The notes under the pieces are model-generated. The model did no database searches and had not been told where the DNA came from. It was given only the letters and a program-made list of their open reading frames with translations. A DNA stretch of 64,000 bases. Origin: an uncultured virus (IMG/VR IMGVR_UViG_3300046837_000353) (Duplodnaviria > Heunggongvirae > Uroviricota > Caudoviricetes). Below, piece after piece: positions 10,136 to 45,093 of this stretch; the first letter of the stretch is position 1, and each line of letters starts with the position of its first letter. The stretch spans positions 1 to 64,000 of IMG/VR virus record IMGVR_UViG_3300046837_000353. One strand, written 5' to 3'. The position numbers and the translations under genes were made by a program.

Positions 10136-11404
10136 TTATGTTACTCTTAAGTTATACTTAAGAAATCTTTTGACCAAAGTTGTTGACTTTATTCTACGTC
10201 GAGTTAATGCAGAAAGCATCATCATAGTTACTCCAACTATCACTATTGAAACTTTGTCGTTCATATCTCCCACAATGAAAATTGGTTGTAGAATTAATGT
10301 CATCAAAACTCCAGTACAAAATGTAACAAGAGAATTCTGACCTAAAAGAATGACTGGCTTGGAAACAGTCCATCTTAAGAATTCACTCTCTCGACTGACA
10401 AAGCTATTAATAACAATCACCACTGCTAGAAAATTAGCTAGTCGGACTGGTGCTAGAAATTCTTTACTTTGAAATAGTCTCCATGGCAAACCACCAGGAA
10501 AGATGAGTTCATTTACCGATGGTATGCTAAAAATTGCGCATCCTATAACAATAGTCCAAGCTCCAATAGTTATCCAATTCCATTTATTAACTATATAAAT
10601 TTCTCTGTTCTTAATCGGAATAAACTCTGGAATTAGAATTCTTCTTCTATGAGTTTGAAGATGTCGAATTGATGCACCTATGACAAATAGGAATTGCCAT
10701 GACAAAGGATTTACCCAATGAGCACTGTTAAAATATGGAATATCCCACAATATAATTAAAGTCGAAAAGTAAATTGAAAAGGAAACTAGTAACGTTACCA
10801 ACACATTCTTCCTAAGAGCATATAGAATAATCGGAAGAATTGCTAGGAGCATCATATATACTGGCAAAACTCCTAGAAATGGTACCTTAAACTTAAAAGA
10901 AACTAGCGCATCGATAGCTTGCTGAAAGACAGTATCAATTGAGATATAAGGAGATGACTCACCAGAAATTACTACATACAAAAAGTAGAATAAGAAAATC
11001 AGAAAGTTGGCTATGTATAGCTTACCAACTCGTTTGTAAATTTTAGTAGCTGTTGGTCGTATTCCATAGTTATTCAACATACTTCCATAGACCAAATAAG
11101 AAATGTATCCTGAGATACAAATGAAAACCTCCGATGCATCGAAGAAAGTGAAATAGCGAAGGAGTAGCGGTGATCCATGAACATGATCATAAAAGATCAA
11201 AATGAGAGCGATTCCTCGAAAGAAATCTACTCTGGGATCACGAGAGCTAAGGTAGTCAGCCGGCATCATTACACCGGTGGTACCGCGCCGATTCTCTTCA
11301 ATCGGCAAAGTGTCGATATGACTTCCCTTCTGAAAATCAGCGCGTGGTTTTGGGAGACGGGACAATCTATGCTCCCAACGATACATCATTTCGGCGTAAT
11401 CCAT
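10136..11404 (-). CDS. opgC: OpgC-family membrane acyl(succinyl)transferase
   Basis: RDPRVDFFRGIALILIFYDH, DASEVFICISG, LPVY, NPLSWQFLF, LGQNSL..FC; about 10 TM segments; start placed at the AAAGGA RBS. Confidence 0.85.
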   Translation of the reverse strand: MDYAEMMYRWEHRLSRLPKPRADFQKGSHIDTLPIEENRRGTTGVMMPADYLSSRDPRVDFFRGIALILIFYDHVHGSPLLLRYFTFFDASEVFICISGYISYLVYGSMLNNYGIRPTATKIYKRVGKLYIANFLIFLFYFLYVVISGESSPYISIDTVFQQAIDALVSFKFKVPFLGVLPVYMMLLAILPIILYALRKNVLVTLLVSFSIYFSTLIILWDIPYFNSAHWVNPLSWQFLFVIGASIRHLQTHRRRILIPEFIPIKNREIYIVNKWNWITIGAWTIVIGCAIFSIPSVNELIFPGGLPWRLFQSKEFLAPVRLANFLAVVIVINSFVSRESEFLRWTVSKPVILLGQNSLVTFCTGVLMTLILQPIFIVGDMNDKVSIVIVGVTMMMLSALTRRRIKSTTLVKRFLKYNLRVT

Positions 11405-11415
11405 AACAGTTCCTT

Positions 11416-12672
11416 TCATCTCATAAACCAACGACTAATCACTTGCTTCACTCCTTTCATTGGGGAACCCCACCTTTGCCTTACTTCTTTGGCTTGTTTT
11501 TGTACTGTTATCTTTAATGGTGGATTGTGTCTTTTATGTAGTTCTTCAATTACAGCAGTGATGTCTCCTAACTTTCCATCAAAACCTACCTCAAGAACAG
11601 CTAGTGACGCAATCGAATAGGCTTCAAGCAGACGTGGTACCCATTGTGTTCTCCGCTTTAGATCCATTGGAAGGATCTTTTTCCCCACATTATTTTCAAG
11701 ATTCACCCAGTTTATTGCCCGGATTTTCAGCGTTTCCATAGTTAGAAGAGCATCATTCGGATAACCAAGTATTTTAATTTCATGTATCTTATTCCAAAAC
11801 ATCTGTTTATATTCATTAATCAAGCCCATTTCAAAGGTATAGCGCATGGCTCGGTGAAGTTTTTGATTACCTCGCTGTCCATGTTCCAAGTGGGTTAGTA
11901 TGTGAAACCATGCGTCCTCAAACGGATCTCTACTGGGCTTCAGTCTAGGACGACGATACTTGGTGATGGATGAAGGTGTAACTTCCACCACTTCCTTAAC
12001 TTTGGGTAACGGTGCGGGTGGAGGCAACACAGGAGGAGTTAATAACTTAGGTGGTGCTTCCGGGTATACCTTGGGTGCACGTTTGCGCCTGGCCGCACCC
12101 GCGCGAGGTAGAGTAGATTTCTCAGGTGGAGCCTGAATTATCTCTGGTGGGATTGGTGGTACCTGCGCAGCATATGTCGCCGCTTCTGCTTCCCGACATC
12201 CGTTAATAAGTGCTGCAACCTTATCCAAATTAACCCCATTACCATTGGATTGCGGATTAGTTACAGAGACTTCGTTATTACAGGTAGGACATGTATAAGC
12301 AGGTTTTTGATTGGAAGATGGCCAATGGGATAGATAACGTTTATTCCCACAATCTACACAAGCAGTCGTATCAGGCTTAAGCCGAATAAAATCAGAACGT
12401 TGCAGACGGGGAATATTTCCCCGACTGTTTTTTCCCTGATCATCTTGACGCTCAATGAGTGGGCGGACATATGATATAAATAACCGCCATCGGGCAGTAT
12501 GCAAACCTACATCAATCGGTGAATCTCCTCTGCCATTAATCCGGGAGGATCGGCGGAGGGCTAGATGGGGTGGAATTGATTCTTCCACCCCAGCAAAGAG
12601 CCCTCCTAACCGAACCCAAGACTCTGGGTTCGCCGCTAGATTAGCGACGGTTTGTTGTCGCCAGGTTAGCAT
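11416..12672 (-). CDS. Hypothetical protein with Zn ribbon and Pro-rich linker
   Basis: CVDC...CPTC; PPVLPPPAPLP. Confidence 0.7.
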   Translation of the reverse strand: MLTWRQQTVANLAANPESWVRLGGLFAGVEESIPPHLALRRSSRINGRGDSPIDVGLHTARWRLFISYVRPLIERQDDQGKNSRGNIPRLQRSDFIRLKPDTTACVDCGNKRYLSHWPSSNQKPAYTCPTCNNEVSVTNPQSNGNGVNLDKVAALINGCREAEAATYAAQVPPIPPEIIQAPPEKSTLPRAGAARRKRAPKVYPEAPPKLLTPPVLPPPAPLPKVKEVVEVTPSSITKYRRPRLKPSRDPFEDAWFHILTHLEHGQRGNQKLHRAMRYTFEMGLINEYKQMFWNKIHEIKILGYPNDALLTMETLKIRAINWVNLENNVGKKILPMDLKRRTQWVPRLLEAYSIASLAVLEVGFDGKLGDITAVIEELHKRHNPPLKITVQKQAKEVRQRWGSPMKGVKQVISRWFMR

Positions 12673-22440: not shown

Positions 22441-22492
22441 CATGTGTTCGAATTCGCGTATAATAATTTGATGCCTATTTTTGGGGGAAGCA

Positions 22493-23062
22493 ATGGTTGA
22501 TTGGTTAAAGGTCAGACAAGGAGTCATTGATATTCTGGATGGTTTGGGATTGGATGCTAGAGATCCAAACTTTTTCGATACACCGGATCGGGTTGTGCGG
22601 GCTTATCAAGAGATCTTTGCAGGTCTAGATGAACGGAATACCGTTGAAGAGATGCTTAAAAGTGTGTTCCCCTGTGAACACCAACAGATGATTTTAGTTA
22701 AACATGTTGAAGTGTTTAGTATGTGTCCTCATCATCTTCTTCCAGTCCGTTATGATATTACGGCTGGGTACTTACCTGGTCCGGGGATTCGAGCAAAGGT
22801 CTTGGGCCTGTCAAAATTGGCTAGGATCACAAAGCTTCTAGCTGCCCGACCTGTTCTTCAGGAGCAAGTGGTTAACGATATCGCCAATACTCTAATGCGT
22901 ATACCTGAATGTCGTGGGGCTGGCTGCATTGCTACTGGTGAACACTATTGTATGCGTATGCGTGGAGTCAATCAGAGTGGCTCAATTGTTGTTACCAGCG
23001 CCTTGCGTGGTGAGTTCTTATCTGATTCAATGGTCCGTGAAGAATTCATGGACTTTAGATAG
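22493..23062 (+). CDS. folE: GTP cyclohydrolase I
   Basis: DTPDRVVRAY, SMCPHHLLP, GLSKLAR, LQEQ, HYCMRMRGV. Confidence 0.95.
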   Translation: MVDWLKVRQGVIDILDGLGLDARDPNFFDTPDRVVRAYQEIFAGLDERNTVEEMLKSVFPCEHQQMILVKHVEVFSMCPHHLLPVRYDITAGYLPGPGIRAKVLGLSKLARITKLLAARPVLQEQVVNDIANTLMRIPECRGAGCIATGEHYCMRMRGVNQSGSIVVTSALRGEFLSDSMVREEFMDFR

Positions 23063-23071
23063 GAGAAGTAG

Positions 23072-23731
23072 ATGGGTATCGCTGTTGTTACTGGAGCATC
23101 TTCTGGTATTGGTAAGGCAATCTATGATCACTTTAATACAAGCGACCGGTTTGATAGTGTTGTTGGTATAGCTAAGAACGGTCCGGATCTTGAATATGAC
23201 TTGTCGAGTGAGAAGGATATTCAAGAGATTGTGGATGACCTGCGCACCGCAGGTGACATTTCTTGTCTTGTAAATTGTGCGGGAATTTTGAAGCTTGAAG
23301 AGGTTGGAAATGAAGGTCAGATATTTGACGTTAACTTTTGGGCGCCATACTACCTGACTAATGCACTAAAGCATGAGTTGATTGCTGCACGTGGTTGTGT
23401 TATCAATATTGCCTCAGTTAGTGGGATGATTGCCGAGCCTGAGATTCCGATCTATGCCGCATCTAAGGCCGCGCTGATTTCACTGACCAAGAGTCTCGCT
23501 ATTAGGTTCTCACCCTTTTTTGTTAGGGTGAATTGCATTAGTCCTGGATTTGTTAAGACGAATCTGATTCCGGGTGATACACCAATTGAACTTCTCAACG
23601 CAATCCCCTTAGGGTTTGAAGCAGAACCCGCAATGCTCCTTCCAGTCGTCGATATGATACTTGATTGTCCTTACGTTACTGGTGCAAACTTTGTAGTTGA
23701 CGGCGGGGGTTCTTGTAGAGCTGCAATGTAA
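23072..23731 (+). CDS. SDR family oxidoreductase
   Basis: VTGASSGIG, NCAG, YAASK, VNCISPG, VDGG. Confidence 0.93.
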   Translation: MGIAVVTGASSGIGKAIYDHFNTSDRFDSVVGIAKNGPDLEYDLSSEKDIQEIVDDLRTAGDISCLVNCAGILKLEEVGNEGQIFDVNFWAPYYLTNALKHELIAARGCVINIASVSGMIAEPEIPIYAASKAALISLTKSLAIRFSPFFVRVNCISPGFVKTNLIPGDTPIELLNAIPLGFEAEPAMLLPVVDMILDCPYVTGANFVVDGGGSCRAAM

Positions 23732-23764
23732 TGTGAGACACGGTGCCACGTAAGGGAAGGTAAG

Positions 23765-24835
23765 ATGTCTGAATTACACACACCACGGTACTCCTGCATA
23801 TTCCAGTCGAGAATGTGCCCACGTTCTTGTTCCTATTGTCTGAGCAAAGACGTTAGAGGAGATGGGACTTTTCTGTCACCGGAGCAATGGGCAGATGCAT
23901 TACACATTCTGGAGTATCATGGTGTCCAGTTCCACTTGTTTATCGGTAATGAACTGTTTTCCTATTCCGATCCTGTTGGCTTTGTCAAGGCAATCAAACC
24001 CTTCTATGGGAGGTATGGTATCTATTCGACATTCCCACCAGGATGGACTGAAAAATATTTTGATGACTGTATTAACGCTGGTCTGTATAACATCTCTGGT
24101 GGTGTGGACGTCCTTCCCGGGTTACATAAGACAGGTGACGTCCACATTGATCGCAAGGCTCAAGCGGTGCTTAGTTGGTTGGAGTATGCGCTGATGCGCG
24201 GTGTACCGGACGTGCAAGCGCAAATTACTATTCATCGACACAATTACGATAAGCTCTATCCATTGCTTGACTTGTGTACAGAAAAGGGGATGTGGGTTGG
24301 GTGTTCTCTAGTAGAAGCATCTGCGGATGGACTACACGATTTTTACGGTACTGCTGATACAATGACTGAATGGTTAATACCAGCAGATGAACGTAACAAG
24401 TTTAGCGATGAGATGTACAAGTTAGCGGATGAGGTTGCCACCGGCAGGTGGAAGATGCAGTTACCACCAACATACTTTCGTGAACTAGCAGATCGTGAAG
24501 TGAGGCGTGATCCTTGGCATTGCAGTTTGCCTATGCTGATCTCAATTGAAGAGGATGGTTCTCTGCGCGGGTGCGGGTATAGGGGACCACTATCAGAAAA
24601 ATATTCGATATTCGACCTTCGTGAGGGCGGAAAGTTGCCCATGTCTGAGTATATAAGGTTGCAGAGGGAAAAGACCAGTCAGTGCCCTGGTTGTGGAGTT
24701 GGTGGCGGGGCTTGGTCGTTCTGGTGGATGGCTGAGTATTGGTTAAAGGGTGATGTGGCAATGGGAGACAGAATCTTCCAGACACATGCACCGGGGCATC
24801 TCTTTGAAGCGACGGTGAGACAGGATGAGCAATAA
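23765..24835 (+). CDS. Radical SAM enzyme with a SPASM/twitch-like C-terminus
   Basis: CPRSCSYC (CxxxCxxC); C-terminal C..(I)EEDGSLRGC...CPGC. Confidence 0.85.
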   Translation: MSELHTPRYSCIFQSRMCPRSCSYCLSKDVRGDGTFLSPEQWADALHILEYHGVQFHLFIGNELFSYSDPVGFVKAIKPFYGRYGIYSTFPPGWTEKYFDDCINAGLYNISGGVDVLPGLHKTGDVHIDRKAQAVLSWLEYALMRGVPDVQAQITIHRHNYDKLYPLLDLCTEKGMWVGCSLVEASADGLHDFYGTADTMTEWLIPADERNKFSDEMYKLADEVATGRWKMQLPPTYFRELADREVRRDPWHCSLPMLISIEEDGSLRGCGYRGPLSEKYSIFDLREGGKLPMSEYIRLQREKTSQCPGCGVGGGAWSFWWMAEYWLKGDVAMGDRIFQTHAPGHLFEATVRQDEQ

Positions 24836-25082
24836 GCCAACAGTTGCTGAAGTGATGATAAAATTTCTTGTTGAAGAAAAGATTGCCAATCCTCATTCGA
24901 CATCTAAGAATGCCTCGGATGAAGAAGCGATAGCAATTTACGATAATTGTGTGGCATTTGTTGAGCGTTATTACCCTGATGTTACTACAGAAGAACTCCG
25001 CAAGGCTTTTCGTAAAGTACACAAGACTCCAGCGTCGAAGATGTGGGCTATAGCGAATAAGTACAAGGGTGGTACTGCATGA
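24825..25082 (+). CDS. Hypothetical protein
   Basis: Overlapping operon ORF. Confidence 0.6.
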   Translation: MSNKPTVAEVMIKFLVEEKIANPHSTSKNASDEEAIAIYDNCVAFVERYYPDVTTEELRKAFRKVHKTPASKMWAIANKYKGGTA

Positions 25083-25756
25083 AGTCCTATTCAAAGAAGA
25101 CAATCAAGCGATTTAACCTAACCATTGAAGGTGATGAATTTAATGATGCTGAACAGAATAAATCACTCTATGATGATCACGTGAGTGGATATGATGAGTT
25201 GACTAAGTTGTTAGACATCAATGATACAACCTATGTCTATCGTAAGGTACTCAATGTTGGTGCAGGTTCGGGTTCTCCGTTAAAGTTTCCCCATCCAGTT
25301 GATATGTACTATCTTGAGCCCAATCCAGATCGGGTTGAAGAGATTGATGTCGATCGTGATGATAACATAATCTCTGGTTGGTGTGAGAACATCGAGACTG
25401 AACTAAAGTTTGATATGATTATCTGTTGGGGAACATTGTGCTTTGTACGTTCTATACCAGAAACCCTAATTCAGTTTAATGATCGTTTGTTTAAAGAAGG
25501 TATGTTGGTACTAGATGTAGTTAAATCAACATCATTCCCACTATGCCAGACTGCTGATCCTGATAGTTTTATTAGAAATGTGAGTTTGTATGGGTTTGAA
25601 TTACAACATCGTATCCCCTTTGATCATTTGGGACACAATCGTGAGGGGATTCGCTTTAAGAAGGTTCGCGACTTTGACCCTAGGTATCTGCGGATGCCTC
25701 AGGCTAAGGATGGCTTGAGGAACTTCATCCCTGAGAGAGACTGGTTTCTATCTTAG
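25079..25756 (+). CDS. Class I SAM-dependent methyltransferase-like protein
   Basis: VLNVGAGSG, LEPN, FDMIICWGTLCFV, L.KEGMLVL. Confidence 0.8.
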   Translation: MKSYSKKTIKRFNLTIEGDEFNDAEQNKSLYDDHVSGYDELTKLLDINDTTYVYRKVLNVGAGSGSPLKFPHPVDMYYLEPNPDRVEEIDVDRDDNIISGWCENIETELKFDMIICWGTLCFVRSIPETLIQFNDRLFKEGMLVLDVVKSTSFPLCQTADPDSFIRNVSLYGFELQHRIPFDHLGHNREGIRFKKVRDFDPRYLRMPQAKDGLRNFIPERDWFLS

Positions 25757-25766
25757 AGGAGATAAC

Positions 25767-26321
25767 ATGACACCTGGTCTAGTCGTTCTTACCAGCGGTG
25801 GTTTTGATAGTGCATTATTGTTACACATGGCAAAGCGGATGAACTATAATCCAATCGCCCTATTGATTGATTATGGTCAGAAACACGTTCGGGAATTGGA
25901 TGCTGCTGTTAAGTTGTGCGATGATCTCCAGGTTTCCTTTAAGCGGATGAAGGTTGATCTTGCTCAAGCAGTTGACTCTGGGTTGACTGGTACTTTGCAG
26001 GGTGGTAAGTATGAGGGACTGCATGAGATGCACGTCCCTGGACGCAACACTATCTTTGTTGGTCTAGCTCTGTCACTGGCAGAAGCTGTCGGTGCAACAA
26101 AGATTTGGTATGGAGCGAATTTTGAGGACCGGATAAATGAGTTTGCGGACTGCAAACAAGACTGGGTCCTCGAGATGAACAAGTCTCTAAAGATCGCGGG
26201 AAGCTACCCAGTGGAGTTGGAAGCCCCTTTGCTTGGGATGCGCAAGGACACTATTGTGCGCATGGGTAAGCTGTACCACGATATTAAGGAAGAGGAGGTT
26301 CACAGTGGGTATGCCGTCTAA
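25767..26321 (+). CDS. queC: QueC-like 7-cyano-7-deazaguanine synthase lacking the C-terminal Zn site
   Basis: SGGFDS, DYGQKH..E, VPGRNTIF, ADC, APLL..K; ends HSGYAV where QueC has SCY..CGxCxxC. Confidence 0.85.
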   Translation: MTPGLVVLTSGGFDSALLLHMAKRMNYNPIALLIDYGQKHVRELDAAVKLCDDLQVSFKRMKVDLAQAVDSGLTGTLQGGKYEGLHEMHVPGRNTIFVGLALSLAEAVGATKIWYGANFEDRINEFADCKQDWVLEMNKSLKIAGSYPVELEAPLLGMRKDTIVRMGKLYHDIKEEEVHSGYAV

Positions 26322-27132
26322 TAATGATAAGAAGATTCTTCACTGGAGATCCACGGCAAACGGAGGTGATCCTTCTTCTCCTACACAACCGGATTTGCCT
26401 GATGGGTTTATCACTATAAGGGAGGCTGTTAGTCTTACAGGTTTTTCTAAAACAACTATTCGTAAAACAAAAGTGACCCATCGACAAGAATGGCGTAGGA
26501 TAGATGGGAGGGTATTTGTACGCAAAGACTTTATCTTGGAATATTGTGCGGTTAGAGCTAGGCTTAGGGCTAGACCTGAACCCAGGAGGCGGAAAAAGAA
26601 GTACCCTAATCGTGTACCTGCTCGTTTTTTACTGCCTCTTAAACCAGGTGAATGGTTTATTAGGACTGAAGTTGAGAGGAGAAAGGGAACAGAAGGTGTA
26701 TACCTTCACTTTGTCTCTGGTGATGATCTTTCCGATCTGAATATCTACTCGTTTGATTGTATGTATAACGCGCTTAAAGCTGGTGGGTATTCTGAACTTA
26801 AAGGTTTACCAGAATGGACTGCAGTGACGGTTCCTAAGAATCGTAATATTCCGCAGTTAGAATTTGAACACAAGTATACAAAGAGGGAACAGGGTTTAGG
26901 TCATGTATGCCGAATTGGTACAACGGATGGTGCAGCTATTCCTTCCTGGATGAAGGCTCCTGGTTTGATGAAAGGTAAAATGGAGAGGGAATCGTTTGTA
27001 GGAAAGACTATTCTGCGAATTACGGCTACTCAAATGATCGAGATGGAGGGTTTTACACCTGGAGAGTTTGTGGACGAACGTATAAAAGAAGAAGGAAAAG
27101 CTTACTGGGGTCCTCTTTGGGATTTAACTTGA
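26311..27132 (+). CDS. Hypothetical protein with an N-terminal HTH
   Basis: FITIREAVSLTGFSKTTIRK. Confidence 0.6.
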   Translation: MPSNNDKKILHWRSTANGGDPSSPTQPDLPDGFITIREAVSLTGFSKTTIRKTKVTHRQEWRRIDGRVFVRKDFILEYCAVRARLRARPEPRRRKKKYPNRVPARFLLPLKPGEWFIRTEVERRKGTEGVYLHFVSGDDLSDLNIYSFDCMYNALKAGGYSELKGLPEWTAVTVPKNRNIPQLEFEHKYTKREQGLGHVCRIGTTDGAAIPSWMKAPGLMKGKMERESFVGKTILRITATQMIEMEGFTPGEFVDERIKEEGKAYWGPLWDLT

Positions 27133-27136
27133 GGGA

Positions 27137-27523
27137 ATGAAAATGGAAGAGCAGATCGCACACACTATGCTGATGAATAAGCACTATAGCCCGATGGTTG
27201 TCAGGAAGACCTCAACATGGGGCTTCCCAGTGTTTGTTGCTTTGATCACCGATGACGACTTGGCGGATCTGGATCAGGTTATTCTAAAGTTTATGCTGGA
27301 TGCAAAGGCAGTCAACGGGTGGTCAGATAATATTCAAAAGATGCGCAACCTGGCGGGAGCAATGGTTGAGATGCTCAATAATAGGTATCCGAAGGTTGAA
27401 GGATCAGCTGTGATAATTTATTCAGACAAATGCTTCATCTCTAGTTTGCATGGCGATCTGATGACACATCTTAGTTGTAAAGTTGAACTTTTCGAGCTTC
27501 TCAATATGAGTACTGGAGTTTAG
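27137..27523 (+). CDS. Hypothetical protein
   Basis: 128-aa operon ORF. Confidence 0.65.
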   Translation: MKMEEQIAHTMLMNKHYSPMVVRKTSTWGFPVFVALITDDDLADLDQVILKFMLDAKAVNGWSDNIQKMRNLAGAMVEMLNNRYPKVEGSAVIIYSDKCFISSLHGDLMTHLSCKVELFELLNMSTGV

Positions 27524-27525
27524 TT

Positions 27526-27675
27526 ATGTCTCGTCCACGTGGGTATAAACATACTGAGGCTACCCGAAAGAAGCTTAGTGAAGGAACTAAATTACGTTAT
27601 GAGGCTGGGATATTGATGGGGTTTCGTGCTAAACCGTTGTCTGAGGAGGCACACGTTATGCTCAATTCCGTGTGA
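27526..27675 (+). CDS. NUMOD3-motif mini-protein (49 aa; not in ORF track)
   Basis: GGAG RBS; MSRPRGYKHTEATRKKLSEG. Confidence 0.5.
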   Translation: MSRPRGYKHTEATRKKLSEGTKLRYEAGILMGFRAKPLSEEAHVMLNSV

Positions 27676-28124
27676 CAAAAGATGAGAAGTCATCTAAGGA
27701 ATTAGCCATCTATGTCAACCATGCAGTGGATGGACACGTTTGCGCTGACTGTTCTATGTTTGATCCACCTGCCTCTTGCAATGCAGTGGCTGGTCCAATT
27801 AGTCCAGCGGGTCATTGCAGTTTCTGGACGGCCAAAGAAAACAATCTAAGAATAAGCAGTTTCCAAGGCTTACCCGTATTTATTGAGACATCTAAAGGTG
27901 AAAGACGTAGACAAGATTGGCCTATTATGCCAGCACACTATGGATTTATTACTATGACTAACTCACCAGAAAAGAATGATGGATTAGACGTCTTTATTGG
28001 AGACAATAAAGCCTGTCGTCACTGTTGGATTATTGACCAAATCCATCCAGATACAGAGGAGTTTGTCAATGACTTCCGAGATTCGTGGTCTTGTAACTTG
28101 CGAAATTCAAGAGATGCTCCATGA
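27672..28124 (+). CDS. HiPIP-like 4-Cys domain fused to a truncated inorganic-pyrophosphatase-like domain
   Basis: CADCSMF..PASC.AVAGPISPAGHCSFW; GLPVFIETSKGERR...MPAHYGFI...DGLDVFIG...IIDQ. Confidence 0.6.
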   Translation: MTKDEKSSKELAIYVNHAVDGHVCADCSMFDPPASCNAVAGPISPAGHCSFWTAKENNLRISSFQGLPVFIETSKGERRRQDWPIMPAHYGFITMTNSPEKNDGLDVFIGDNKACRHCWIIDQIHPDTEEFVNDFRDSWSCNLRNSRDAP

Positions 28125-28582
28125 CGATAGCGATATGGGCTCCCCATGCAGATGACGAGATAATTGGTTGCTACCATGTACTTATGTCTAAAGAAAAGGT
28201 ACAAGTATACTATGGGGGGATTGTTGAAGATGGCTGCAAGAGAGCCTCTAGACTATTCGGTTTCGAATTTTACCATCTCAGCAATCTCGCTCGTCCTTGG
28301 GATGTCGTCTATGCTCCTGATCCTAATGTGGATATGCATCCGGAGCATCGCCGATTAGGCCAGATGGCCCATCAAATGTTTAGGGCGGGCAAGATAAGGC
28401 GAGTAATTCACTATTGTACAACGATGCAGGCGCCGTATATATTTGAAGTACCAGATCCCGAGGCAAAGCGGAATGCGTTGAATCAATGCTATCCTGAAAA
28501 GGGAGATTTATGGCGATACGAATGGAAATATGTATTATTTGAAGGATACTGGGAGGTATTAAGATTGGATCATAGAAAATGA
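28121..28582 (+). CDS. PIG-L/LmbE-family deacetylase-like protein
   Basis: APHADDEIIG and HPEHR metal-binding motifs. Confidence 0.8.
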   Translation: MTIAIWAPHADDEIIGCYHVLMSKEKVQVYYGGIVEDGCKRASRLFGFEFYHLSNLARPWDVVYAPDPNVDMHPEHRRLGQMAHQMFRAGKIRRVIHYCTTMQAPYIFEVPDPEAKRNALNQCYPEKGDLWRYEWKYVLFEGYWEVLRLDHRK

Positions 28583-29526
28583 GACTGATAGTTGTACCCC
28601 AATATCCTGCGCAGCTACGATATCAATCCTGGTGGTTGACACGACTTGAAGATTACTATCTGTACTTTGATAAGGTACTTATCCTCCACCCACCGCAGTT
28701 TACCAATCAAGCTCATTTAAGTGGTGAATTTGCCCCGGCAATGGCGGCAATTGATTATGAGGTTAGACAGATCAGTTTGTATAATCAGTTAGTAATTGAT
28801 GAAGAGGATGATATATTACTTCTTTGTGATATTAGCTTTCCTGGACTATTCTCATCTGTTTTATTTCATAAGCGTCCTAAGAAATGCTTTGCCATTTGCC
28901 ACGCAACATCGCTTAATAGGTATGATTACTTTGCTGCGGTGCGTCCCGGGAAGTGGAGAGTGGAAACAGGGACTAGCAAGATATTTGATAAGATTTTTGT
29001 GGCAAGTGAGTATCATAAGGAGCGGTTAGGCTGGAAGAACACGGTGGTGATCAAGTTTCCGTTACCAAAGATTGATGAATTAGTGGAAAAGCGGTTGAGT
29101 AAGGAGCAACAACATCACCATAGTAGATCGTTTATTAGTGTGGCCCGGAAAGGGGTGCAAAAGATTGATTTAGAATTGGAGAGGTTTTTTGAATGGAGTG
29201 AGAGGACTAGTATACACAGGTTTTATCAAACTAAAGGTAAGACTTGGACTGATTACTATGGATTTGTTGAGGCTGGGCGGTTTATGATTATTACTTCCCG
29301 CGAAGAGACTTATGGCTATCAAGTCATAGACGCGTTATCAGTAGGCACTATTCCACTTGCTCCAAGAGCATTGTCCTACCCTGAATTGTTACCAGATGAA
29401 AATTTATACGAACCCGGAAGGGCTACTGATCTGATAGATACGTATAAAAGGTATGGAGATAAGCCCGCGCCTCCTTTGTGGGAAGACAAGTTCTTTGAGT
29501 TCACAGCAACTGAGATGAAAAGATGA
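28579..29526 (+). CDS. GT-B (GT4-like) glycosyltransferase
   Basis: FVASEYHK; SREETYGYQVIDAL..G.IPLAP..LSYPELL. Confidence 0.8.
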   Translation: MRLIVVPQYPAQLRYQSWWLTRLEDYYLYFDKVLILHPPQFTNQAHLSGEFAPAMAAIDYEVRQISLYNQLVIDEEDDILLLCDISFPGLFSSVLFHKRPKKCFAICHATSLNRYDYFAAVRPGKWRVETGTSKIFDKIFVASEYHKERLGWKNTVVIKFPLPKIDELVEKRLSKEQQHHHSRSFISVARKGVQKIDLELERFFEWSERTSIHRFYQTKGKTWTDYYGFVEAGRFMIITSREETYGYQVIDALSVGTIPLAPRALSYPELLPDENLYEPGRATDLIDTYKRYGDKPAPPLWEDKFFEFTATEMKR

Positions 29527-30611
29527 AAAACTATGTGGTAATGTTGGATAGCGGTGCCTGGACTGCCCATACCAAGGGTATGACGATTAACTTGGATAAG
29601 TATGCAGAATTTGTTCATCAGAATAAACATCTGTTTGGTGGTGGTGTGTTCAATTTGGACTTCATAGATCCACCGGTCTCTGCTGCATACCAGACTGAAT
29701 CAGCTGAAAAGAGCTATAAGAACTGGATTGAGCTGCGCAAGCTTGGGATTGATACCATACCTGTTCACCATATTGGCGATGATGACGAGTCATACCTAAA
29801 GAAGTATTTAGAGCAGACTGATTATATTGGAATTGGTGCAATTGCCAAACTAAACGCTGAAGCTCGAATTTACGGACTTGATTATATCTGGAAAGAATAT
29901 CTGTCAAATAAGGATGGTACGCCCAGGTATAGATGTCATGGTCTTGGTTTGACTGATATCAAGATCACGCTGCGCTATCCTTGGTTCTCTGTGGATAGTA
30001 CTCGTGCGATTATGCTGGCTGCACATGGTGGTATCTTGCTGCCTAAACTTGATGGTGACAAGTTCTCCTACAGAGAGATATACCAGGTTGCGGTGAGTAA
30101 TCAAGGTCGTAGTCATTATCGGGGTAAGGGTGATAGTTTTTATGGCATGTCAAAGCTCATCCAGGGTCAGATAAAGCACTATTGTACTTCGTTAGGTTAT
30201 GAGTTGGATGATTCTATTGCGGGACGTACACTTAATCCCCTGATGAAGAGTCGAAAGAAGGTAGATGGTAAGTGGACGTCAGATTTTGCTTCACGTCAAT
30301 TGGGGTTCCCTGAAGAAGCTGCGCTTGCTGATGCTCCTTTAGTAAGTAACAATGTAGATGAGAAGAACTTGTCGGCAAGCTGGGTTCCCAGGTTTATCTT
30401 TAATCTATATGTGTCGGATCAGTTTATCAAGTATTGGCGCACACAAGGTAAAACGATCAGGATCTATAATGTAGTTGGTGGAGGCAATGTGTTCGACACG
30501 TTTGTTGTTGGATCACAGAGTGTCCCAGCTAATAGATGCTTGGTCAGTTATGCTAGGCTTTCCGGTTCCTTTCTTGATCGGTTAAAAGAGGTTGTCAATG
30601 GACATCACTAG
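29523..30611 (+). CDS. TGT-fold DNA transglycosylase (DpdA-like)
   Basis: MLDSGAWT, NLDFI, IPVHH, YIGIG, HGLG, SVDST; sits in a folE/queC cluster. Confidence 0.75.
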   Translation: MKNYVVMLDSGAWTAHTKGMTINLDKYAEFVHQNKHLFGGGVFNLDFIDPPVSAAYQTESAEKSYKNWIELRKLGIDTIPVHHIGDDDESYLKKYLEQTDYIGIGAIAKLNAEARIYGLDYIWKEYLSNKDGTPRYRCHGLGLTDIKITLRYPWFSVDSTRAIMLAAHGGILLPKLDGDKFSYREIYQVAVSNQGRSHYRGKGDSFYGMSKLIQGQIKHYCTSLGYELDDSIAGRTLNPLMKSRKKVDGKWTSDFASRQLGFPEEAALADAPLVSNNVDEKNLSASWVPRFIFNLYVSDQFIKYWRTQGKTIRIYNVVGGGNVFDTFVVGSQSVPANRCLVSYARLSGSFLDRLKEVVNGHH

Positions 30612-31614
30612 AGAAGCATTAACAAAGGCAATTGGTTTAGTTGTACCAGGTATTGCGAGGAAGGAAGTCTTTGATCAGGCTAATAAACTAGCCTTTGATC
30701 AAGGTAATCTGATATCTTACAATGATCAAGTTTCGATCTTTCACCCGCTTGAAGGAAGCGAAGAACTTTCCGGTGCTCTTGATGGTCGTCGCTTGTACGA
30801 CCTTCTGAACAAGACTGATTCTAGTAATGTTAAGATGATCCAAAAGGGTAACAATATTGAAGTAAGTGTTGGAAGGACCACGGTCAGTCTAATCACAGCA
30901 CCGGTGGCTTTACCCTTTGCTGAGATCGACTGGACTGGTGAGGATCAGATTTTACCGAATGATTTTAAGAAGGGGCTAAAGTTGGTTGCTAGTACCTGTG
31001 CGCGCGACATGAGTAGGCCCGTTTTGACCTGCGTTTATATGGCGGGTGAGTATCTGACTGGGTCAGATGGGTATCGCGTAGCCCAGTTTAGGATTGAAGG
31101 GGCGGATCTTCCATCTATTCTGTTACCCGTTACTGCTGCTGAATTGTTAGAGGATGAGGATTACGTTATCAAGACTGTTGCCGTTGGAGAGAAAGGTGAG
31201 TGGGTTAGGTTTGCTACAGAAGACAATACTGTGATTTGTGCGCGTACGTCATCTGGTACTTACCCGGATCTCTCTGCCACATTGTCTACAGAGGGAGAGG
31301 ATATTACTCTACCAAAGAGGTTAACCGAAACACTGGAGCGCGCGCAGATCTTTTCCAAGCGGGATCACAGGATTGACGAAGAGGTTAGAATCACTTTAAG
31401 TGGGACTCAAATTGTTGTTGGGGCTAGTTGTGATGGTGGAACGTTTAAGGAGATTGTGAGGGCAAGTCAAGAAGTCAGTGGTGAGTTTATGTTTAATATA
31501 CATCCTGAGTTCTTGTCGAGAGCTTTAACCGAAGAGAATGCAAACTGTGTCCTAAATACTTCGAAGATTAAGTTTACCGGACCGCAATGGGAACATGTGG
31601 TAGCACTTCGATGA
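30598..31614 (+). CDS. DNA polymerase sliding clamp (beta-like)
   Basis: D.SRPVLTCVY, GSDGYRVA, GTYPD; 338 aa. Confidence 0.85.
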   Translation: MDITREALTKAIGLVVPGIARKEVFDQANKLAFDQGNLISYNDQVSIFHPLEGSEELSGALDGRRLYDLLNKTDSSNVKMIQKGNNIEVSVGRTTVSLITAPVALPFAEIDWTGEDQILPNDFKKGLKLVASTCARDMSRPVLTCVYMAGEYLTGSDGYRVAQFRIEGADLPSILLPVTAAELLEDEDYVIKTVAVGEKGEWVRFATEDNTVICARTSSGTYPDLSATLSTEGEDITLPKRLTETLERAQIFSKRDHRIDEEVRITLSGTQIVVGASCDGGTFKEIVRASQEVSGEFMFNIHPEFLSRALTEENANCVLNTSKIKFTGPQWEHVVALR

Positions 31615-32062: not shown

Positions 32063-33298
32063 ATGCCAATACCGAGGTTATTCGGGGATAATGAACCTCC
32101 AGCTAAAGGTGGGCTGGGTAAACCTCTGTCATGTGTATCTTGTGGTCTGTATAATGGACCAATCAACCCAAAGATGCCTCCCTTCGGGGATTTCAAGAAA
32201 CAGATTATGGTTATTGGTGAAGGACCCGGTGAACAAGAGGATCGAAAAGGTAGACCATTCCAGGGACCAACCGGTAATGCTATCAAAGAAGCATTGAGTG
32301 ATCTTGGTATTGATCTATTTCGTGATTGTATAAATTTGAATGCAGTTAATTGTCGACCACCTAGTAATAGAGCACCATCTGTCCACGAGATTGCGTGTTG
32401 TAGAGCGCGGATAGTGTCCCCCGCTATAGCTGCGCATAGTCCTCGATTAATGCTGCTACTGGGCGGGAGCGCCGTTACTAGTGTCCTTGGAAGTGTGCTA
32501 CCGGAAGCGCAGGACTCGAGCATTGGAAAGTGGCGTGGTTTTCACATCCCTCTACCGGAATTAGGTGCCTGGATTTGCCCAACGTATCATCCCAGTTATG
32601 TTTCCAGGTCCAGTGATAGGCCTGAAGTAGAGACAGTTTGGAAGAATGATTTGAAACAAGCTATTGACTTGCTAAATGTATCTGTACCCAGAGTAGAGAT
32701 TTTACGTAATAGGATTGTTCTTCTTCATGGTGAAGAAGAGATTCTTAGAGCATTGAATAGGGTAAAAGTACGAAAAGGTCTGTTCTCATTTGATTATGAG
32801 ACTGTAGGATTAAGTGCAAAGTTACACAGTATAGTTTGTGCGTCTTTTTGTCAGTCACCTGAGCGTGCGTATGCGTTTATGTTTACTGATGCTTCCGAGG
32901 CTGTTCGTCAAGCTTGGCGGGATATTCTAGTAAACGAAGATATTGGTAAGATCTCACATAATCTATCATTTGAATATGAGTGGAGCCGCTTCCATTTTGA
33001 TATTGATGAGATAAATTGGGCTTGGGATAGTATGCTTGCAGCACATGTTATTGATAATCGTACGGGTATTTGTGGGTTAAAGTTTCAATCTTTTATCAAT
33101 TTTGGTGTTGTAGGGTATGAGAATTTAATCGATCCCTATTTAAAGTCTGTAACACCGCGAGATCCCACTGCGCCAAACCGTATACTAGAGTTTATAGAGA
33201 GGCATGGTGAAGATGAATGCCTAATCTATTGCGGGATTGACTCCCTTCTCGCCTATAGGTTAACCATGAAGCAAATGAAAGAGATTGAAGATGGCTGA
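32063..33298 (+). CDS. Family-4 uracil-DNA glycosylase domain fused to a PolA 3'-5' exonuclease (N-terminal part of a split DNA polymerase)
   Basis: CVSC, GEGPG..E, NCRPP.NR, TYHPS; then FDYET, HNLSFE, DSMLAAH, YCGIDS. Confidence 0.9.
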   Translation: MPIPRLFGDNEPPAKGGLGKPLSCVSCGLYNGPINPKMPPFGDFKKQIMVIGEGPGEQEDRKGRPFQGPTGNAIKEALSDLGIDLFRDCINLNAVNCRPPSNRAPSVHEIACCRARIVSPAIAAHSPRLMLLLGGSAVTSVLGSVLPEAQDSSIGKWRGFHIPLPELGAWICPTYHPSYVSRSSDRPEVETVWKNDLKQAIDLLNVSVPRVEILRNRIVLLHGEEEILRALNRVKVRKGLFSFDYETVGLSAKLHSIVCASFCQSPERAYAFMFTDASEAVRQAWRDILVNEDIGKISHNLSFEYEWSRFHFDIDEINWAWDSMLAAHVIDNRTGICGLKFQSFINFGVVGYENLIDPYLKSVTPRDPTAPNRILEFIERHGEDECLIYCGIDSLLAYRLTMKQMKEIEDG

Positions 33299-33497
33299 TG
33301 TTCACTTTGATTTTGGTATTTGGAATCAAAAGGCAGGTTGGATAGGAAAGTGCCCTAAACATGGTCCTCAGCAGAGTGGTCTTTCTATTTCCCTCCCACC
33401 CCTAATTAGAAATTATTGTGGTGAATGTTTAATTGAATTGTTAGATCAGTTTTGTCATCCTCTGGAGTACGTCAATGAAAATGATGGAAGCCTATAA
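33291..33497 (+). CDS. Small Cys/His protein between the two polymerase halves
   Basis: CPKHG...YCGEC; overlaps both neighbours. Confidence 0.55.
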   Translation: MADVHFDFGIWNQKAGWIGKCPKHGPQQSGLSISLPPLIRNYCGECLIELLDQFCHPLEYVNENDGSL

Positions 33498-34854
33498 GCT
33501 GCTCCAACGAGGGGCTGAAGCTCTTACCCTTGTAGAGGAAGCGGGGATTTGTATTGATCTTGTTTATGTTAGGGAGAAACTGGCTTGGGTTGAGCAAAAG
33601 TTAAAGCAGTCAGAATTACGACTAAAGAGCAGTGAGTTAGGCATTGCTTGGCTTGGTCGCTATGGTGATGCAATGAAGATTCAAAGTGTCCCTCAATTGA
33701 GACACATCCTTTATCAGGATATGCGAGCTAAACCATTCAAGATGTCTGAGGGTGGTGAAGAGAGTACAAACGAGGAATCCCTTCGACAGACTAATGTTGA
33801 TGGTGTTGTCCATTTGTTGCGGATGCGGAGGCTGAAAAAGGCTAAAGATGTTTTGAAAGTGTTGATTAGATCTACAGTCAATGGCAAGATCCACCCATCT
33901 TTTCTGTTGCATACAGTATCAACGTATAGATCGTCTAGTGCTGATCCCAACCTGCAGAATATACCAGCCCGAGATAAAGAAATTATGGACATCTGTAGAA
34001 GGGCGTTTCTTCCCAGCCCTGGTCATATTTTGATGGAGATTGACTTTTCAGGTATTGAAGTCGGTATTGCAGCAACTTATCACAAAGATCCTGTAATGAT
34101 TAAGTACTTACAGGATGAGACAAGTGATATGCACGGGGATATGGCAGGTGAGATTTTCTTGCTGCCCAAATTGAATACCCCTCTCAAAGAGATGGAAGGT
34201 GGGTATACATTAAGGCAGTCAGCAAAGAACGGGTTTGTCTTCCCGCAATTCTACGGTGACTATTACGAGCCCTGCGCGCTTAATGTCGCTTGTTCCTGGT
34301 GCAAGCTACCAAAGGATGGAATGTGGAAGCCTAATCACGGTGTTGTATTTAATGGTAAACCCATAGGGGAACATTTGATATCTAAAGACATTGATTCGTT
34401 TAGTGTATTTGTTGATCACATGGAACGGGTACAAAACAACTTTTGGGGCAAGCGTTTCAAAGTATATAATGCTTGGAGAAAGACTTGGCATTCTAAGTAC
34501 CAAAAGACCGGTGAATTTGAAATGAAGACCGGGTTTAGGGTCTCCGGTGTTATGGAAAAGAATCAAGTAATCAATTTCCCTGTACAAGGGGCCGCATTCC
34601 ATTGTTTGTTATGGTCTTTGATTGAAATGGTAAAGCAGTTAAAGGGTTGGCAGAGTAAGGTGGTTGGTGAGATACACGACAGTATGCTGATAGATGCACA
34701 TCCAGACGAGATCTCTGATATTATTCTAATGGCGCAGCAAATCTGCACGGTCGATCTACCAAACCACTGGTCTTGGATAGATATACCTATGCGTATCGAA
34801 GTTGCTGCCTCAGAAATAGATGGTAACTGGGCTGAAATGAAAGGTGCAGCATGA
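33475..34854 (+). CDS. Family A DNA polymerase, polymerase domain
   Basis: TYRSSSADPNLQNIP, DFSGIE (motif A), RQSAK..F...YG (motif B), NFPVQG, IHDS (motif C). Confidence 0.93.
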   Translation: MKMMEAYKLLQRGAEALTLVEEAGICIDLVYVREKLAWVEQKLKQSELRLKSSELGIAWLGRYGDAMKIQSVPQLRHILYQDMRAKPFKMSEGGEESTNEESLRQTNVDGVVHLLRMRRLKKAKDVLKVLIRSTVNGKIHPSFLLHTVSTYRSSSADPNLQNIPARDKEIMDICRRAFLPSPGHILMEIDFSGIEVGIAATYHKDPVMIKYLQDETSDMHGDMAGEIFLLPKLNTPLKEMEGGYTLRQSAKNGFVFPQFYGDYYEPCALNVACSWCKLPKDGMWKPNHGVVFNGKPIGEHLISKDIDSFSVFVDHMERVQNNFWGKRFKVYNAWRKTWHSKYQKTGEFEMKTGFRVSGVMEKNQVINFPVQGAAFHCLLWSLIEMVKQLKGWQSKVVGEIHDSMLIDAHPDEISDIILMAQQICTVDLPNHWSWIDIPMRIEVAASEIDGNWAEMKGAA

Positions 34855-44852: not shown

Positions 44853-45093
44853 TTTTTTTGAGTTTCGGCCGAGAGGTGTCTTAGCTCATCGAGGTGATCG
44901 ATTGGAGCAGCTTCGCGAATTACGGCAAGCTGGTGCACCTCGTTTTATGGTGCGACATAATCAATTAAGTCTGTGGGCATACAGACAAGCGTTAAAGAAC
45001 CCTGCATACTTTTGCAAGGATGTAACCATTCCTGGTCTGCAAGAGAATTTCGTTAAGTTTGTTATGATACACTATACAGCGGGACGAACATAA
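44821..45093 (+). CDS. Hypothetical protein
   Basis: Fills the gap between queD and queE. Confidence 0.45.
   Translation: MEAIVPSSQDDFFEFRPRGVLAHRGDRLEQLRELRQAGAPRFMVRHNQLSLWAYRQALKNPAYFCKDVTIPGLQENFVKFVMIHYTAGRT

Follow-up and report, generated by a model that had tools for sequence, protein, structure and literature searches.

A phage 7-deazaguanine operon with a zinc-less QueC, a T-fold protein, a glycosyltransferase and a PIG-L-type deacetylase predicts an amino-sugar-bearing DNA base

We analysed the first 64 kb (hereafter the window) of the 74,010-bp single-contig record IMGVR_UViG_3300046837_000353, from an uncultured virus of the Caudoviricetes. It contains an operon that is best explained as a 7-deazaguanine DNA-modification system with a conserved core of four genes, encoding a QueC without its zinc motif, a tunnel-fold (T-fold) protein, a PIG-L-type deacetylase and a GT4-like glycosyltransferase (GT). 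We consider, with moderate confidence, that the DNA of this phage carries a 7-deazaguanine decorated with an amino-sugar. At the level of genome sequence, strong evidence ties the sugar-tailoring pair, i.e. the GT and the PIG-L enzyme, to the deazaguanine pathway: the structure of the operon, co-occurrence in several phage backbones and gene fusions. An initial annotation had proposed such a base. The two enzymes it invoked are real and are linked in these three ways, but no result demonstrates their product. The operon is new relative to known deazaguanine systems and directly testable in cultured phages; an amino-sugar base is predicted by it, not proven.

The genes between 22481 and 31614 all lie on the + strand and form one packed operon, with spacings of -20 to +33 nt except for a single 148-nt gap. 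Stop and start codons overlap between the PIG-L and GT genes, between the GT gene and dpdA, and between dpdA and the sliding clamp gene, where the stop of dpdA overlaps the clamp start by 20 nt. The initial annotation had described a co-oriented block running into the clamp and polymerase genes, with queD and queE at 44.4-45.8 kb, and every gene that it named was found in place (Table 1). Its list lacked three open reading frames (ORFs) of the block, of 85, 273 and 128 amino acids, and it overlooked both the loss of the QueC zinc motif and the T-fold gene, which bear on the chemistry. The absence of QueF that it noted holds in two copies of the phage, the 74,010-bp record (65% complete according to CheckV) and a 92,966-bp copy (98%), where nothing passed the cut-off; likewise for Gat-QueC and ArcS, no GATase or ArcS-type Pfam match was found among 64 ORFs scanned. 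The arrangement of the block is not due to chance, because it recurs in all 19 assessable related lineages.

The 315-residue GT of the window has no Pfam match, and its assignment comes from structure and from its relatives. Its AlphaFold2 (AF2) model (pLDDT 91.3, pTM 0.89) has a predicted GT-B fold with two Rossmann-like domains and gave 267 Foldseek matches at E<=1e-3. Among the matches listed nearly all are glycosyltransferases and several are named GT4, led by TarM (8.7e-8), BshA (2.2e-7), a tetrahydrobiopterin glucosyltransferase (3.8e-7) and MshA (4.8e-7). BshA and MshA fit the amino-sugar logic that the initial annotation had read into a GT next to a deacetylase. The family profile (alignment A1, 34 sequences) matched 5i45_A in the PDB, a 'glycosyl transferases group 1 family protein' (3e-4), and the GT and PIG-L proteins of the window gave 0 matches there as single sequences. 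At E<=1e-3, 414 of 1038 scored candidates are homologues of the GT. PF00534 is found in 14 of 120 listed, and the homologues in locus L007 (35.4 bits), in Xanthomonas phage X1 (45.5 bits) and in locus L046 (27.7 bits) pass its cut-off. Across the family E242, E243 and D251 as well as R190, Q194 and K195 are invariant or nearly so, positions that we take to be those of the GT4 EX7E motif and of the phosphate-binding residues. A search for fused forms of 621-2000 residues found none, which is weak evidence.

The PIG-L protein likewise has relatives that pass the cut-off of PF02585 (L046, 29.5 bits; L057, 31.1 bits; Xanthomonas phage PhiXhv-15, 31.2 bits). Alignment A5 (28 sequences) has invariant P8, H9, D11, D12, E13, G16, H73 and H76, which presumably correspond to the metal-binding and catalytic H-x-D-D and H-x-x-H of enzymes such as MshB, and judging from these residues the enzyme looks active. 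An exhaustive profile search returned 1110 cluster representatives at E<=1e-3, 117 of them at E<=1e-30. Some of these proteins are fused to a second domain. The PIG-L protein of L007 (258 residues, L007:2606-3382) ends in a domain of about 100 residues with the motif L-x3-H-R-H-x-F. In the available text of PMC10516641, LxxxHRHxF is the signature of DpdL, a QueD paralogue proposed to decarboxylate 7-carboxy-7-deazaguanine (CDG) and studied from phages phiST and ACP17. On its own the L007 domain matches 29 phage records, including Cellulophaga phage phiST (8e-6) and Acidovorax phage ACP17 (6e-12), and it also matches X1, BUDD and PA5oct-like phages; from the shared HRHxF motif we infer that the ORFs matched in phiST and ACP17 are the DpdL genes of that study. 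Among the best 150 PIG-L representatives 14 have at least 220 residues, and 8 of these 14 (P0241, P0242, P0245, P0250, P0257, P0271, P0274 and P0278) carry a DpdL-like domain (BLASTP 7e-12 to 8e-28), 7 with HRHxF. In phage X1 the DpdL-like domain is a separate ORF between the transglycosylase and a QueE-like gene. No DpdL-like sequence was found in the window, where the L007 fusion protein matches the PIG-L ORF only.

The third member of the core is a QueC-like PP-loop ATPase of 184 residues, which we call QueC-short. According to the available text of PMC13329287, canonical QueC is recognised by SGGxDS, YxQxHxxE, L75, VPxRN, YPDC, K165 and C(x)8CxxCxxC, together with a Tyr of the zinc region that is essential. 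Alignment A3 retains all of these elements except the four Cys: SGGxDS (S10, G11, G12, D14, S15), YxQxHxxE (Y36, Q38, H40, E43), the Leu, VPxRN (V90, P91, R93, N94), F/Y-PDC (F126, P127, D128, C129; FADC in the window), the Lys and the Tyr of WSCY. The family ends in F/H-S-G-Y-G/A (HSGYAV in the window) where canonical enzymes have W-S-C-Y followed by the three further Cys. All four Cys are gone in 23 of the 26 aligned sequences, whereas C(x)8CxxCxxC is retained in loci L015 and L029 and in the Gat-QueC of PhiXhv-15. The closest QueC in cultured phages has only 33% identity.

The fourth member, of 128 residues, matched nothing by sequence in Pfam, PHROGs or NCBIfam, and its family profile had 0 matches in the PDB. 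Its family counts 26 aligned sequences with 21 invariant columns. The AF2 model follows the beta-beta-alpha-alpha-beta-beta order of the superfamily of FolE, QueF, QueD and dihydroneopterin aldolase. Its best Foldseek match is GTP cyclohydrolase I (3e-4), and by VIA it aligns with 4uqf_A, again a GTP cyclohydrolase I (Z 11.0, rmsd 2.4, 99 aligned), with the QueF-like archaeosine synthase 5jyx_A (Z 9.4) and with QueF 4f8b_A (Z 8.3), followed by dihydroneopterin aldolases and PTPS. On this model the protein is a T-fold of a new family. It gave no match to the QueF family PF14489. The structural neighbours all bind purines or pterins and, although a shared fold gives no function by itself, the protein is a probable deazapurine- or pterin-binding partner of QueC-short. 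In relatives the genes of the two proteins abut; in this phage the 273-residue ORF lies between them. Among 8000 scored candidates seven longer proteins contain the T-fold domain at E<=1e-3. One of them, P0124 (354 residues, 11 member sequences), joins a zinc-less QueC ending in FSGYGN to the T-fold domain by a linker of about 35 residues. P0125 to P0128 have an N-terminal domain like nucleoside 2-deoxyribosyltransferases, P0126 over the Pfam cut-off and P0125, P0127 and P0128 below it, and the N-termini of P0122 and P0123 matched no family. Comparison of this T-fold family with the L007 PIG-L fusion by hhalign gave a probability of 0.2%, so that homology between the two types of T-fold is not shown. 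A predicted complex of the PIG-L and T-fold proteins (scores 0.00, 0.34 and 0.00) speaks neither for nor against binding.

Around this core, sequence families identify FolE, QueD and QueE as members of the CDG pathway and DpdA as a DNA guanine transglycosylase. QueD is present in all four genomes searched of the lineage of this phage. Its motif in the window is C-R-F-I-H-G-Y (CxxxHGY), where the available text of PMC10516641 gives CxxxHGH as the QueD signature, and the second zinc-binding His is replaced by Tyr. DpdA matched 182 phage records by tblastn, including phage 9g (2e-18), over residues 3-229 only and with none reaching 80% query coverage. The annotated DpdA genes nearest to it are of the 9g, Vid5 and Rhizobium-phage types. 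Alignment A6 has invariant D9, S10, G11, D46, H83, H139, G140 and D158, together with a conserved C-terminal region of about 130 residues that is clade-specific. The window has no tRNA genes that might serve as an alternative target. By eye, no common docking peptide is evident in the last 30 residues of GT, DpdA and polymerase.

Downstream of queE lies a gene for a small phosphoribosyltransferase-like protein, which is possibly linked to the pathway. Four relatives have a FolE with an N-terminal extension of about 120 residues (L037:6090-6962, L048:10936-11841, L050:10942-11862 and L052:10950-11858). The phosphoribosyltransferase-like protein matches this extension by tblastn in L037 and L050, and in L052 the extension matches Pfam Pribosyltran below the cut-off (1.1e-4). 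One might speculate that the protein recycles guanine released by DpdA towards GTP.

The association of these genes was followed across IMG/VR. A scan with the GT profile gave 236 pattern matches, of which 54 were confirmed, in 53 loci; these fall into 38 GT clusters at 95% identity, and 30 are assessable lineages, with at least 4 kb upstream and at least 2 kb downstream. Genes were sought by tblastn with the window proteins (E<=1e-3), DpdA and FolE within 10 kb. PIG-L was found in all 30, the T-fold gene in 26, the QueC-like gene in 24, QueE in 20, FolE and DpdA in 19 each, the second radical S-adenosylmethionine (SAM) enzyme in 18, the short-chain dehydrogenase/reductase (SDR) in 10 and the methyltransferase in 6. 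In the 19 lineages that share the backbone of this phage (clamp, exonuclease fused to uracil-DNA glycosylase (UDG), and PolA), PIG-L, T-fold, QueC-like, FolE and DpdA genes are present in 19/19, the second radical SAM gene in 18/19 and QueE in 17/19. Their order is FolE, (SDR), radical SAM, (methyltransferase), QueC, T-fold, PIG-L, GT, DpdA and clamp. Whether the tailoring genes accompany dpdA was the check proposed in the initial annotation: the PIG-L/GT pair does so throughout this backbone, but no DpdA was detected near it in the other 11 of the 30 lineages. The pair is linked more tightly to the QueC-like and T-fold genes than to dpdA.

Versions of the module also occur in unlike genomic settings. 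L007, a distant relative at 24-35% identity, encodes PIG-L, a small PP-loop protein, an ORF, a GT (PF00534 9.6e-9), QueD, QueE, FolE, a methyltransferase and DpdA. The cultured Xanthomonas phage X1, and with it BUDD, has FolE, a PAPS-reductase-type PP-loop enzyme, a PIG-L-like protein, a 143-residue ORF, a GT (PF00534 8e-12), an annotated 'queuine tRNA-ribosyltransferase', the DpdL-like ORF and an annotated QueE-like gene. A further backbone, that of Xanthomonas phages PhiXhv-12, -15, -16 and Ep026/Ep032, combines Gat-QueC, PIG-L and GT; in PhiXhv-15 the order is Gat-QueC (PF06508 4.4e-49, plus GATase), PIG-L (3.5e-7, over the cut-off), GT and a GFO/IDH/MocA oxidoreductase, with FolE and a radical SAM gene elsewhere in the genome. 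The window DpdA and phrog_887 gave no match in the records of X1 and PhiXhv-15, an uninformative result as the phrog control was silent. The remaining 11 clusters, hereafter group 2, belong to myoviruses with UDG fused to PolB and contain PIG-L in 11/11, the T-fold gene in 7, a QueC-like gene in 5 and a QueE-like gene in 3. Their loci also carry thymidylate-synthase-like genes, a dCMP deaminase and a fusion of dGTP-diphosphohydrolase with nucleoside deoxyribosyltransferase; the Pfam scan of this group covered 71 of 115 listed ORFs, without any from L039 and without those most distant from the GT in L054 and L029. Such loci (L046:6738-7586; L039:5830-6657) and the fusions of T-fold with deoxyribosyltransferase-like domains in P0125 to P0128 hint at a nucleotide-level route that is independent of DpdA.

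A pathway can be proposed from these genes. FolE, QueD and QueE would convert GTP into CDG, and DpdA would put the deazaguanine, complete or still incomplete, in the place of guanine in DNA, as the families to which they are assigned suggest. QueC-short, with the T-fold protein in place of the zinc tail, would adenylate the carboxylate of CDG with ATP and, being deprived of that tail, would not reach the nitrile but stop at an amide, either 7-amido-7-deazaguanine (ADG) or one that is N-substituted. The GT4 enzyme would add an N-acetylhexosamine, probably from a UDP-sugar, either to the side chain of the deazaguanine or to its 2-amino group, as in huimycin. There are GT-B enzymes that glycosylate the carboxamide of Asn, which offers an analogy for attachment to a side-chain amide. 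The PIG-L enzyme would then strip the acetyl group and expose a cationic amine, and the second radical SAM enzyme, in some lineages with the SDR and the methyltransferase, may further tailor sugar or side chain. In this phage a private ORF with a pyrophosphatase-type (InPase) domain could pull the pyrophosphate-releasing adenylation forward. The end product would be a bulky, charged substitute for guanine and would protect the DNA against nucleases of the host. Two observations favour assembly of the base before its insertion by DpdA, which is more likely than assembly on DNA, and favour a side-chain linkage over N2: the substrates of T-fold enzymes are free bases, and T-fold domains of both types occur fused to enzymes of the pathway. 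In its complete form the scheme would have a 7-deazaguanine with a free-amine hexosamine, assembled as a free base by GT4, PIG-L and a ligase of two parts, zinc-less QueC and T-fold protein. A DpdA whose C-terminal domain is specific to its clade would insert it, and the group without DpdA may use a nucleotide route through deoxyribosyltransferase fusions. As a whole it is tentative and falls a little short of being probable.

Several points weigh against an amino-sugar deazaguanine in this DNA. The 19 concordant lineages share one backbone, and their number hence reflects largely common descent and not independent association. In the 11 group-2 lineages neither DpdA nor FolE was found by tblastn within 10 kb of the PIG-L/GT pair, and profile searches of group-2 contigs, fragments that are 17-59% complete, found DpdA in 0/5, FolE in 0/5 and QueD in 1/5. 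Zinc loss is not obligatory, since L015 and L029 have a QueC with the full zinc motif in the same module. The GT and PIG-L proteins of the window are themselves below the Pfam cut-offs. The DpdA profile has 0 matches in the PDB, so its catalytic Asp and His residues (D9, D46, H83, D158) are placed by spacing only. If DpdL-like domains are decarboxylases, as proposed, they leave no carboxylate, which argues against one side-chain acceptor common to all systems. The block assembles normally in 24/24 listed runs, which means no more than that a modification, if there is one, leaves sequencing possible. Finally, no chemistry has been observed, and the donor sugar, the acceptor atom and the order of steps are all inferred.

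One might suppose that the DNA contains only a known deazaguanine (e.g. dADG made by the zinc-less QueC, dCDG or dPreQ0), and that GT4 and PIG-L act on an envelope glycan of the host, a thiol-like metabolite of low molecular weight or a virion protein. GT4 and PIG-L are indeed the standard pair of bacillithiol, mycothiol and GPI synthesis, the GT model has BshA and MshA among its nearest neighbours in structure, the group-2 lineages keep the pair where neither DpdA nor FolE is detected nearby, and the window holds a host-surface-type OpgC/acyltransferase gene. Yet, a role away from DNA is at odds with the DpdL-like T-fold domain that PIG-L carries in L007 and in 8 of its 14 long representatives, with the position of the pair inside the replication module, where it overlaps dpdA, and with the QueC-family or QueE genes that accompany it in five different backbones. 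General Pfam scans of the window ORFs also found no third enzyme of a thiol pathway, i.e. no Cys ligase. We regard this explanation as unlikely.

In another alternative a sugar-bearing 7-deazapurine is a free metabolite, e.g. an antimetabolite like huimycin, or a precursor that arises by exchange of the base on a deoxynucleotide and is incorporated by the polymerase, and is not inserted by DpdA. There is a precedent for the former: huimycin, a free N2-glycoside of GlcNAc, is made from preQ0 with a GT and a methyltransferase, according to the available text of PMC7439116. The dGTP-diphosphohydrolase/deoxyribosyltransferase fusions of group 2, where no DpdA was detected, the deoxyribosyltransferase-like domains fused to T-fold in P0125 to P0128, the phosphoribosyltransferase-like gene after QueE and the action of T-fold enzymes on free bases would all fit such a route. 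An N2-glycoside, on the other hand, would presumably not fit the known TGT-type pockets, and we count this against the alternative. In this phage and in all 19 lineages of its backbone DpdA lies directly 3' of the GT gene, and every virus known to have deazaguanine in its DNA encodes a DpdA, as the available text of PMC10516641 has it. We regard a free metabolite or nucleotide as likewise unlikely.

FolE, the PTPS-like protein, the SDR and the GT4 enzyme could also make a pterin glycoside, comparable to cyanobacterial biopterin glucoside, the deazaguanine genes being a separate pathway. Tetrahydrobiopterin glucosyltransferases rank 9th and 25th among the matches of the GT model (9v0l, 3.8e-7; 5ze7, 1.3e-6), pteridine reductase is among the 213 NCBIfam families matched by the SDR, and the QueD motif is CxxxHGY, not CxxxHGH. 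But the SDR is missing from 9/19 lineages that keep the QueC-like, DpdA and (17/19) QueE genes, the fusions join tailoring enzymes to QueC and DpdL-like domains, and the neighbours of the GT model form a generic GT4 list. We find a pterin product very doubtful.

The GT might also decorate a hydroxymethylated pyrimidine in DNA, as in phages of the T-even, SP-15 and YerA41 types, independently of deazaguanine. Fusion of UDG to the polymerase exonuclease, as in the window, is reported for phages with glycosylated thymine derivatives in the available text of PMC13697223, and thymidylate-synthase-like genes occur in group-2 loci. However, a thymidylate-synthase-type hydroxymethylase (PF00303) is found in 0/4 genomes of this lineage (65-100% complete, three of them 94-100%), where the control genomes responded, so that no hydroxymethyl-pyrimidine acceptor is made by that route. 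The PIG-L and QueC fusions point to deazapurines instead. A Tet/JBP search was also empty, and with its control silent it is uninformative. Such a pyrimidine acceptor is scarcely credible, and an amino-sugar deazaguanine remains our preferred reading.

Table 1. Features of the operon and its surroundings in the window (figures after family names are E-values).
Feature	Position	Strand	Evidence
FolE, GTP cyclohydrolase I	22481-23062, alternative ATG 22493	+	PF01227 2.8e-51; NCBIfam NF006826 7.2e-55, over cut-off
SDR	23072-23731	+	adh_short 6.4e-29; TGxxxGxG and YxxxK in translation
Second radical SAM enzyme, not QueE	23765-24835	+	PF04055 2.2e-8
85-residue ORF	24825-25082	+	no Pfam, PHROG or NCBIfam match; 1/30 lineages (own)
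Class I SAM-dependent methyltransferase	25079-25756	+	Methyltransf_23 2e-6, 28.1 bits vs cut-off 27
QueC-like PP-loop ATPase, 184 residues, without C-terminal zinc motif	25767-26321	+	PF06508 1.9e-35, profile 3-184 of 210
273-residue ORF between QueC-short and T-fold genes	26311-27132	+	no family match; 1/30 lineages
T-fold protein, 128 residues (predicted)	27137-27523	+	AF2 model pLDDT 88.0 and structure matches
150-residue ORF, Cys-rich HiPIP-like N-terminus and C-terminal InPase (pyrophosphatase-type) domain	27672-28124	+	PF18823 5e-10
PIG-L/LmbE-type metal-dependent deacetylase-like enzyme	28121-28582	+	PF02585 8.2e-4, 20.3 bits, below cut-off 28.2
GT-B (GT4-like) glycosyltransferase, 315 residues	28579-29526	+	AF2 model and Foldseek; family profile vs PDB
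DpdA-like DNA guanine transglycosylase	29523-30611	+	phrog_887 1.2e-33, residues 6-180
Sliding clamp, start of replication module	30592-31614	+	phrog_947 1.3e-32
UDG fused to 3'-5' exonuclease	32063-33298	+	Pfam/PHROG
PolA polymerase domain, separate gene	33475-34854	+	Pfam/PHROG
QueD/PTPS-family enzyme	44397-44852	+	PF01242 2.1e-15; phrog_2389 8.8e-37
QueE-like radical SAM CDG synthase	45093-45797	+	phrog_2076 5.7e-32; PF04055 1.1e-9
Small phosphoribosyltransferase-like protein, 3' of QueE	45937-46356	+	phrog_8995 5.3e-20; Pfam Pribosyltran 1.8e-4, below cut-off
Gamma-glutamyl cyclotransferase/AIG2-like gene	2909-3613	-	PF13772 5e-12
Amidoligase_2 gene	4816-6030	-	PF12224 3.4e-33
OpgC/acyltransferase_3 membrane protein	10136-11431	-	PF10129 3.1e-62

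The other enzymes of the block are less constant. In the second radical SAM enzyme, alignment A4 (20 sequences) has invariant C18, C22 and C25 followed by C253, C270, C307 and C310; the best match of its profile in the PDB is SkfB (5.6e-6), with only the core covered, and its Atlas neighbours are radical SAM/SPASM clusters. The initial annotation had called it a SPASM protein and likened it to BtrN. It is a radical SAM protein with four further invariant Cys, but PF13186 does not match; the spacing of these Cys is presumably BtrN-like, and the likeness goes no further than this auxiliary-cluster pattern, which is of a twitch/SPASM-like kind. The SDR and the methyltransferase, also proposed as tailoring enzymes, are present but optional, occurring in 10/19 and 6/19 lineages of the PolA backbone, and non-orthologous methyltransferases are found in the clusters of L018, L045, L050 and L007. 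For the gene described as like that of a high-potential iron-sulfur protein (HiPIP) the match is weak (NCBIfam Iro 5.9e-5; 23 bits, with the cut-off at 100), and the C-terminal half of its product is an InPase domain; it is private to this phage (1/30 lineages). The 85- and 273-residue ORFs are each as private. The surroundings of the T-fold gene form an insertion hotspot: they hold an HNH endonuclease gene in L015 (L015:8813-9472), a small third radical SAM gene in L034 (L034:8986-9555), methyltransferase genes in L018, L045 and L050, and in this phage the 273-residue and HiPIP/InPase ORFs.

The 9.1-kb block has no near-identical match by megablast among 50,697 deposited phage records. It occurs with 100% protein identity in five IMG/VR contigs and is contained in all 24 listed soil and rhizosphere runs, which are possibly the source of the phage and the product of one campaign, and hence not independent. 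The record encodes two SNF2 helicases, a primase, a DnaB-like helicase, the clamp, a clamp loader, a UvsX-like recombinase, SbcCD and a ribonucleotide reductase, with terminase, portal and tail-fibre genes past 64 kb. The family-A polymerase of the window is split into a UDG-exonuclease gene and a separate polymerase gene, and the unrelated group 2 has UDG fused to PolB. Replication and modification genes form a + strand module at 16000-48000 with a GC content of 0.42-0.48 and a strongly positive GC skew, followed at 48000-60000 by a - strand block with a GC content of 0.52-0.55 and almost no family matches. Near the other end of the window the AIG2-like and Amidoligase_2 genes lie close together as a phage peptide-ligase-type pair, and the OpgC/acyltransferase_3 gene, whose surroundings are low in GC (0.38), is possibly a moron that modifies the host surface.

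If the prediction is true, this would be the first case of a glycosylated purine in natural DNA, and a guanine substitute with a hexosamine would represent a chemically new class of DNA hypermodification. Such a base would have consequences for restriction, CRISPR and glycosylase-type defences and for sequencing and enzymology tools, and it would give functions to three large unnamed phage protein families, those of the GT (414 homologues), PIG-L (1110 cluster representatives) and T-fold proteins. Testing would cost little, since versions of the module occur in cultured Xanthomonas phages.

To our knowledge eight 7-deazaguanine derivatives are known in viral DNA, none with a sugar, and sugar decoration of DNA is known only on hydroxymethyl-pyrimidines. 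The claim of novelty in the initial annotation agrees with our search of the full-text literature, in which no description of a sugar-bearing deazaguanine in DNA was found, most subscription journals lying outside that search. Phage 7-deazaguanine DNA modification systems are said to have been described by Hutinet in 2019. In the available text of PMC10516641 (Cui et al. 2023) they combine FolE, QueD, QueE and QueC or Gat-QueC with DpdA1-4 and with DpdL, DpdM and DpdN; 'glycosyl', 'sugar' and 'deacetylase' have 0 occurrences in its main text. The present operon shares with them FolE, QueD, QueE, a QueC-family enzyme, a DpdA homologue and the location of its genes inside the replication module. 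It differs by the addition of the T-fold protein, PIG-L, GT4 and the second radical SAM enzyme, by a QueC without zinc motif and by the absence of QueF, DpdM and DpdN. A 2026 preprint on deazapurine gene clusters prioritised pathways without dpdA and has 0 occurrences of 'phage', and a review of jumbo phages, in its available part, has a single passage on deazaguanine systems and names no tailoring enzymes there.

Other known systems share parts of this logic. The glucosyltransferases of T4, alpha and beta, are GT-B enzymes of a phage that place sugar on a DNA base, 5-hydroxymethylcytosine, against host nucleases, but their acceptor is a pyrimidine hydroxymethyl group from a ThyA-type hydroxymethylase, the kind found in 0/4 genomes here, and they work without a deacetylase. 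GT4 and PIG-L enzymes, together with an ATP-dependent ligase, act in the bacillithiol (BshA/B/C), mycothiol (MshA/B/C) and butirosin (BtrM/D) pathways. These resemble the present genes in the GT4 fold, in the PIG-L metal-site motif and in having an ATP-dependent carboxylate-activating enzyme alongside; here, in contrast, the ligase-like enzyme is a QueC homologue and not a Cys ligase, and the context is phage DNA replication. In huimycin and dapiramicin a preQ0-type core is made by FolE, QueD, QueE and QueC and decorated by the methyltransferase HuiC and the GT HuiG, which for huimycin puts GlcNAc on the 2-amino group of methylated preQ0; these are the terms of the available text of PMC7439116. 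Huimycin is, however, a free metabolite of actinomycetes, an N2-glycoside with an O6-methyl group, made without deacetylase, T-fold partner or DpdA (PMC7439116). Comparable to QueC-short are QatC and Cap9, QueC-like enzymes that ligate CDG to amines ('deazaguanylation') in an article whose available text has no mention of glycosyltransferase, deacetylase or LmbE (PMC13329287). In both cases a QueC scaffold activates CDG, or is predicted to, to form an amide with a nucleophile other than ammonia, and Cap9 is similarly short (about 185 residues). QatC and Cap9 keep a variant of the zinc motif and act on protein N-termini in defence, whereas the phage enzyme has lost the zinc Cys and probably pairs with a T-fold protein.

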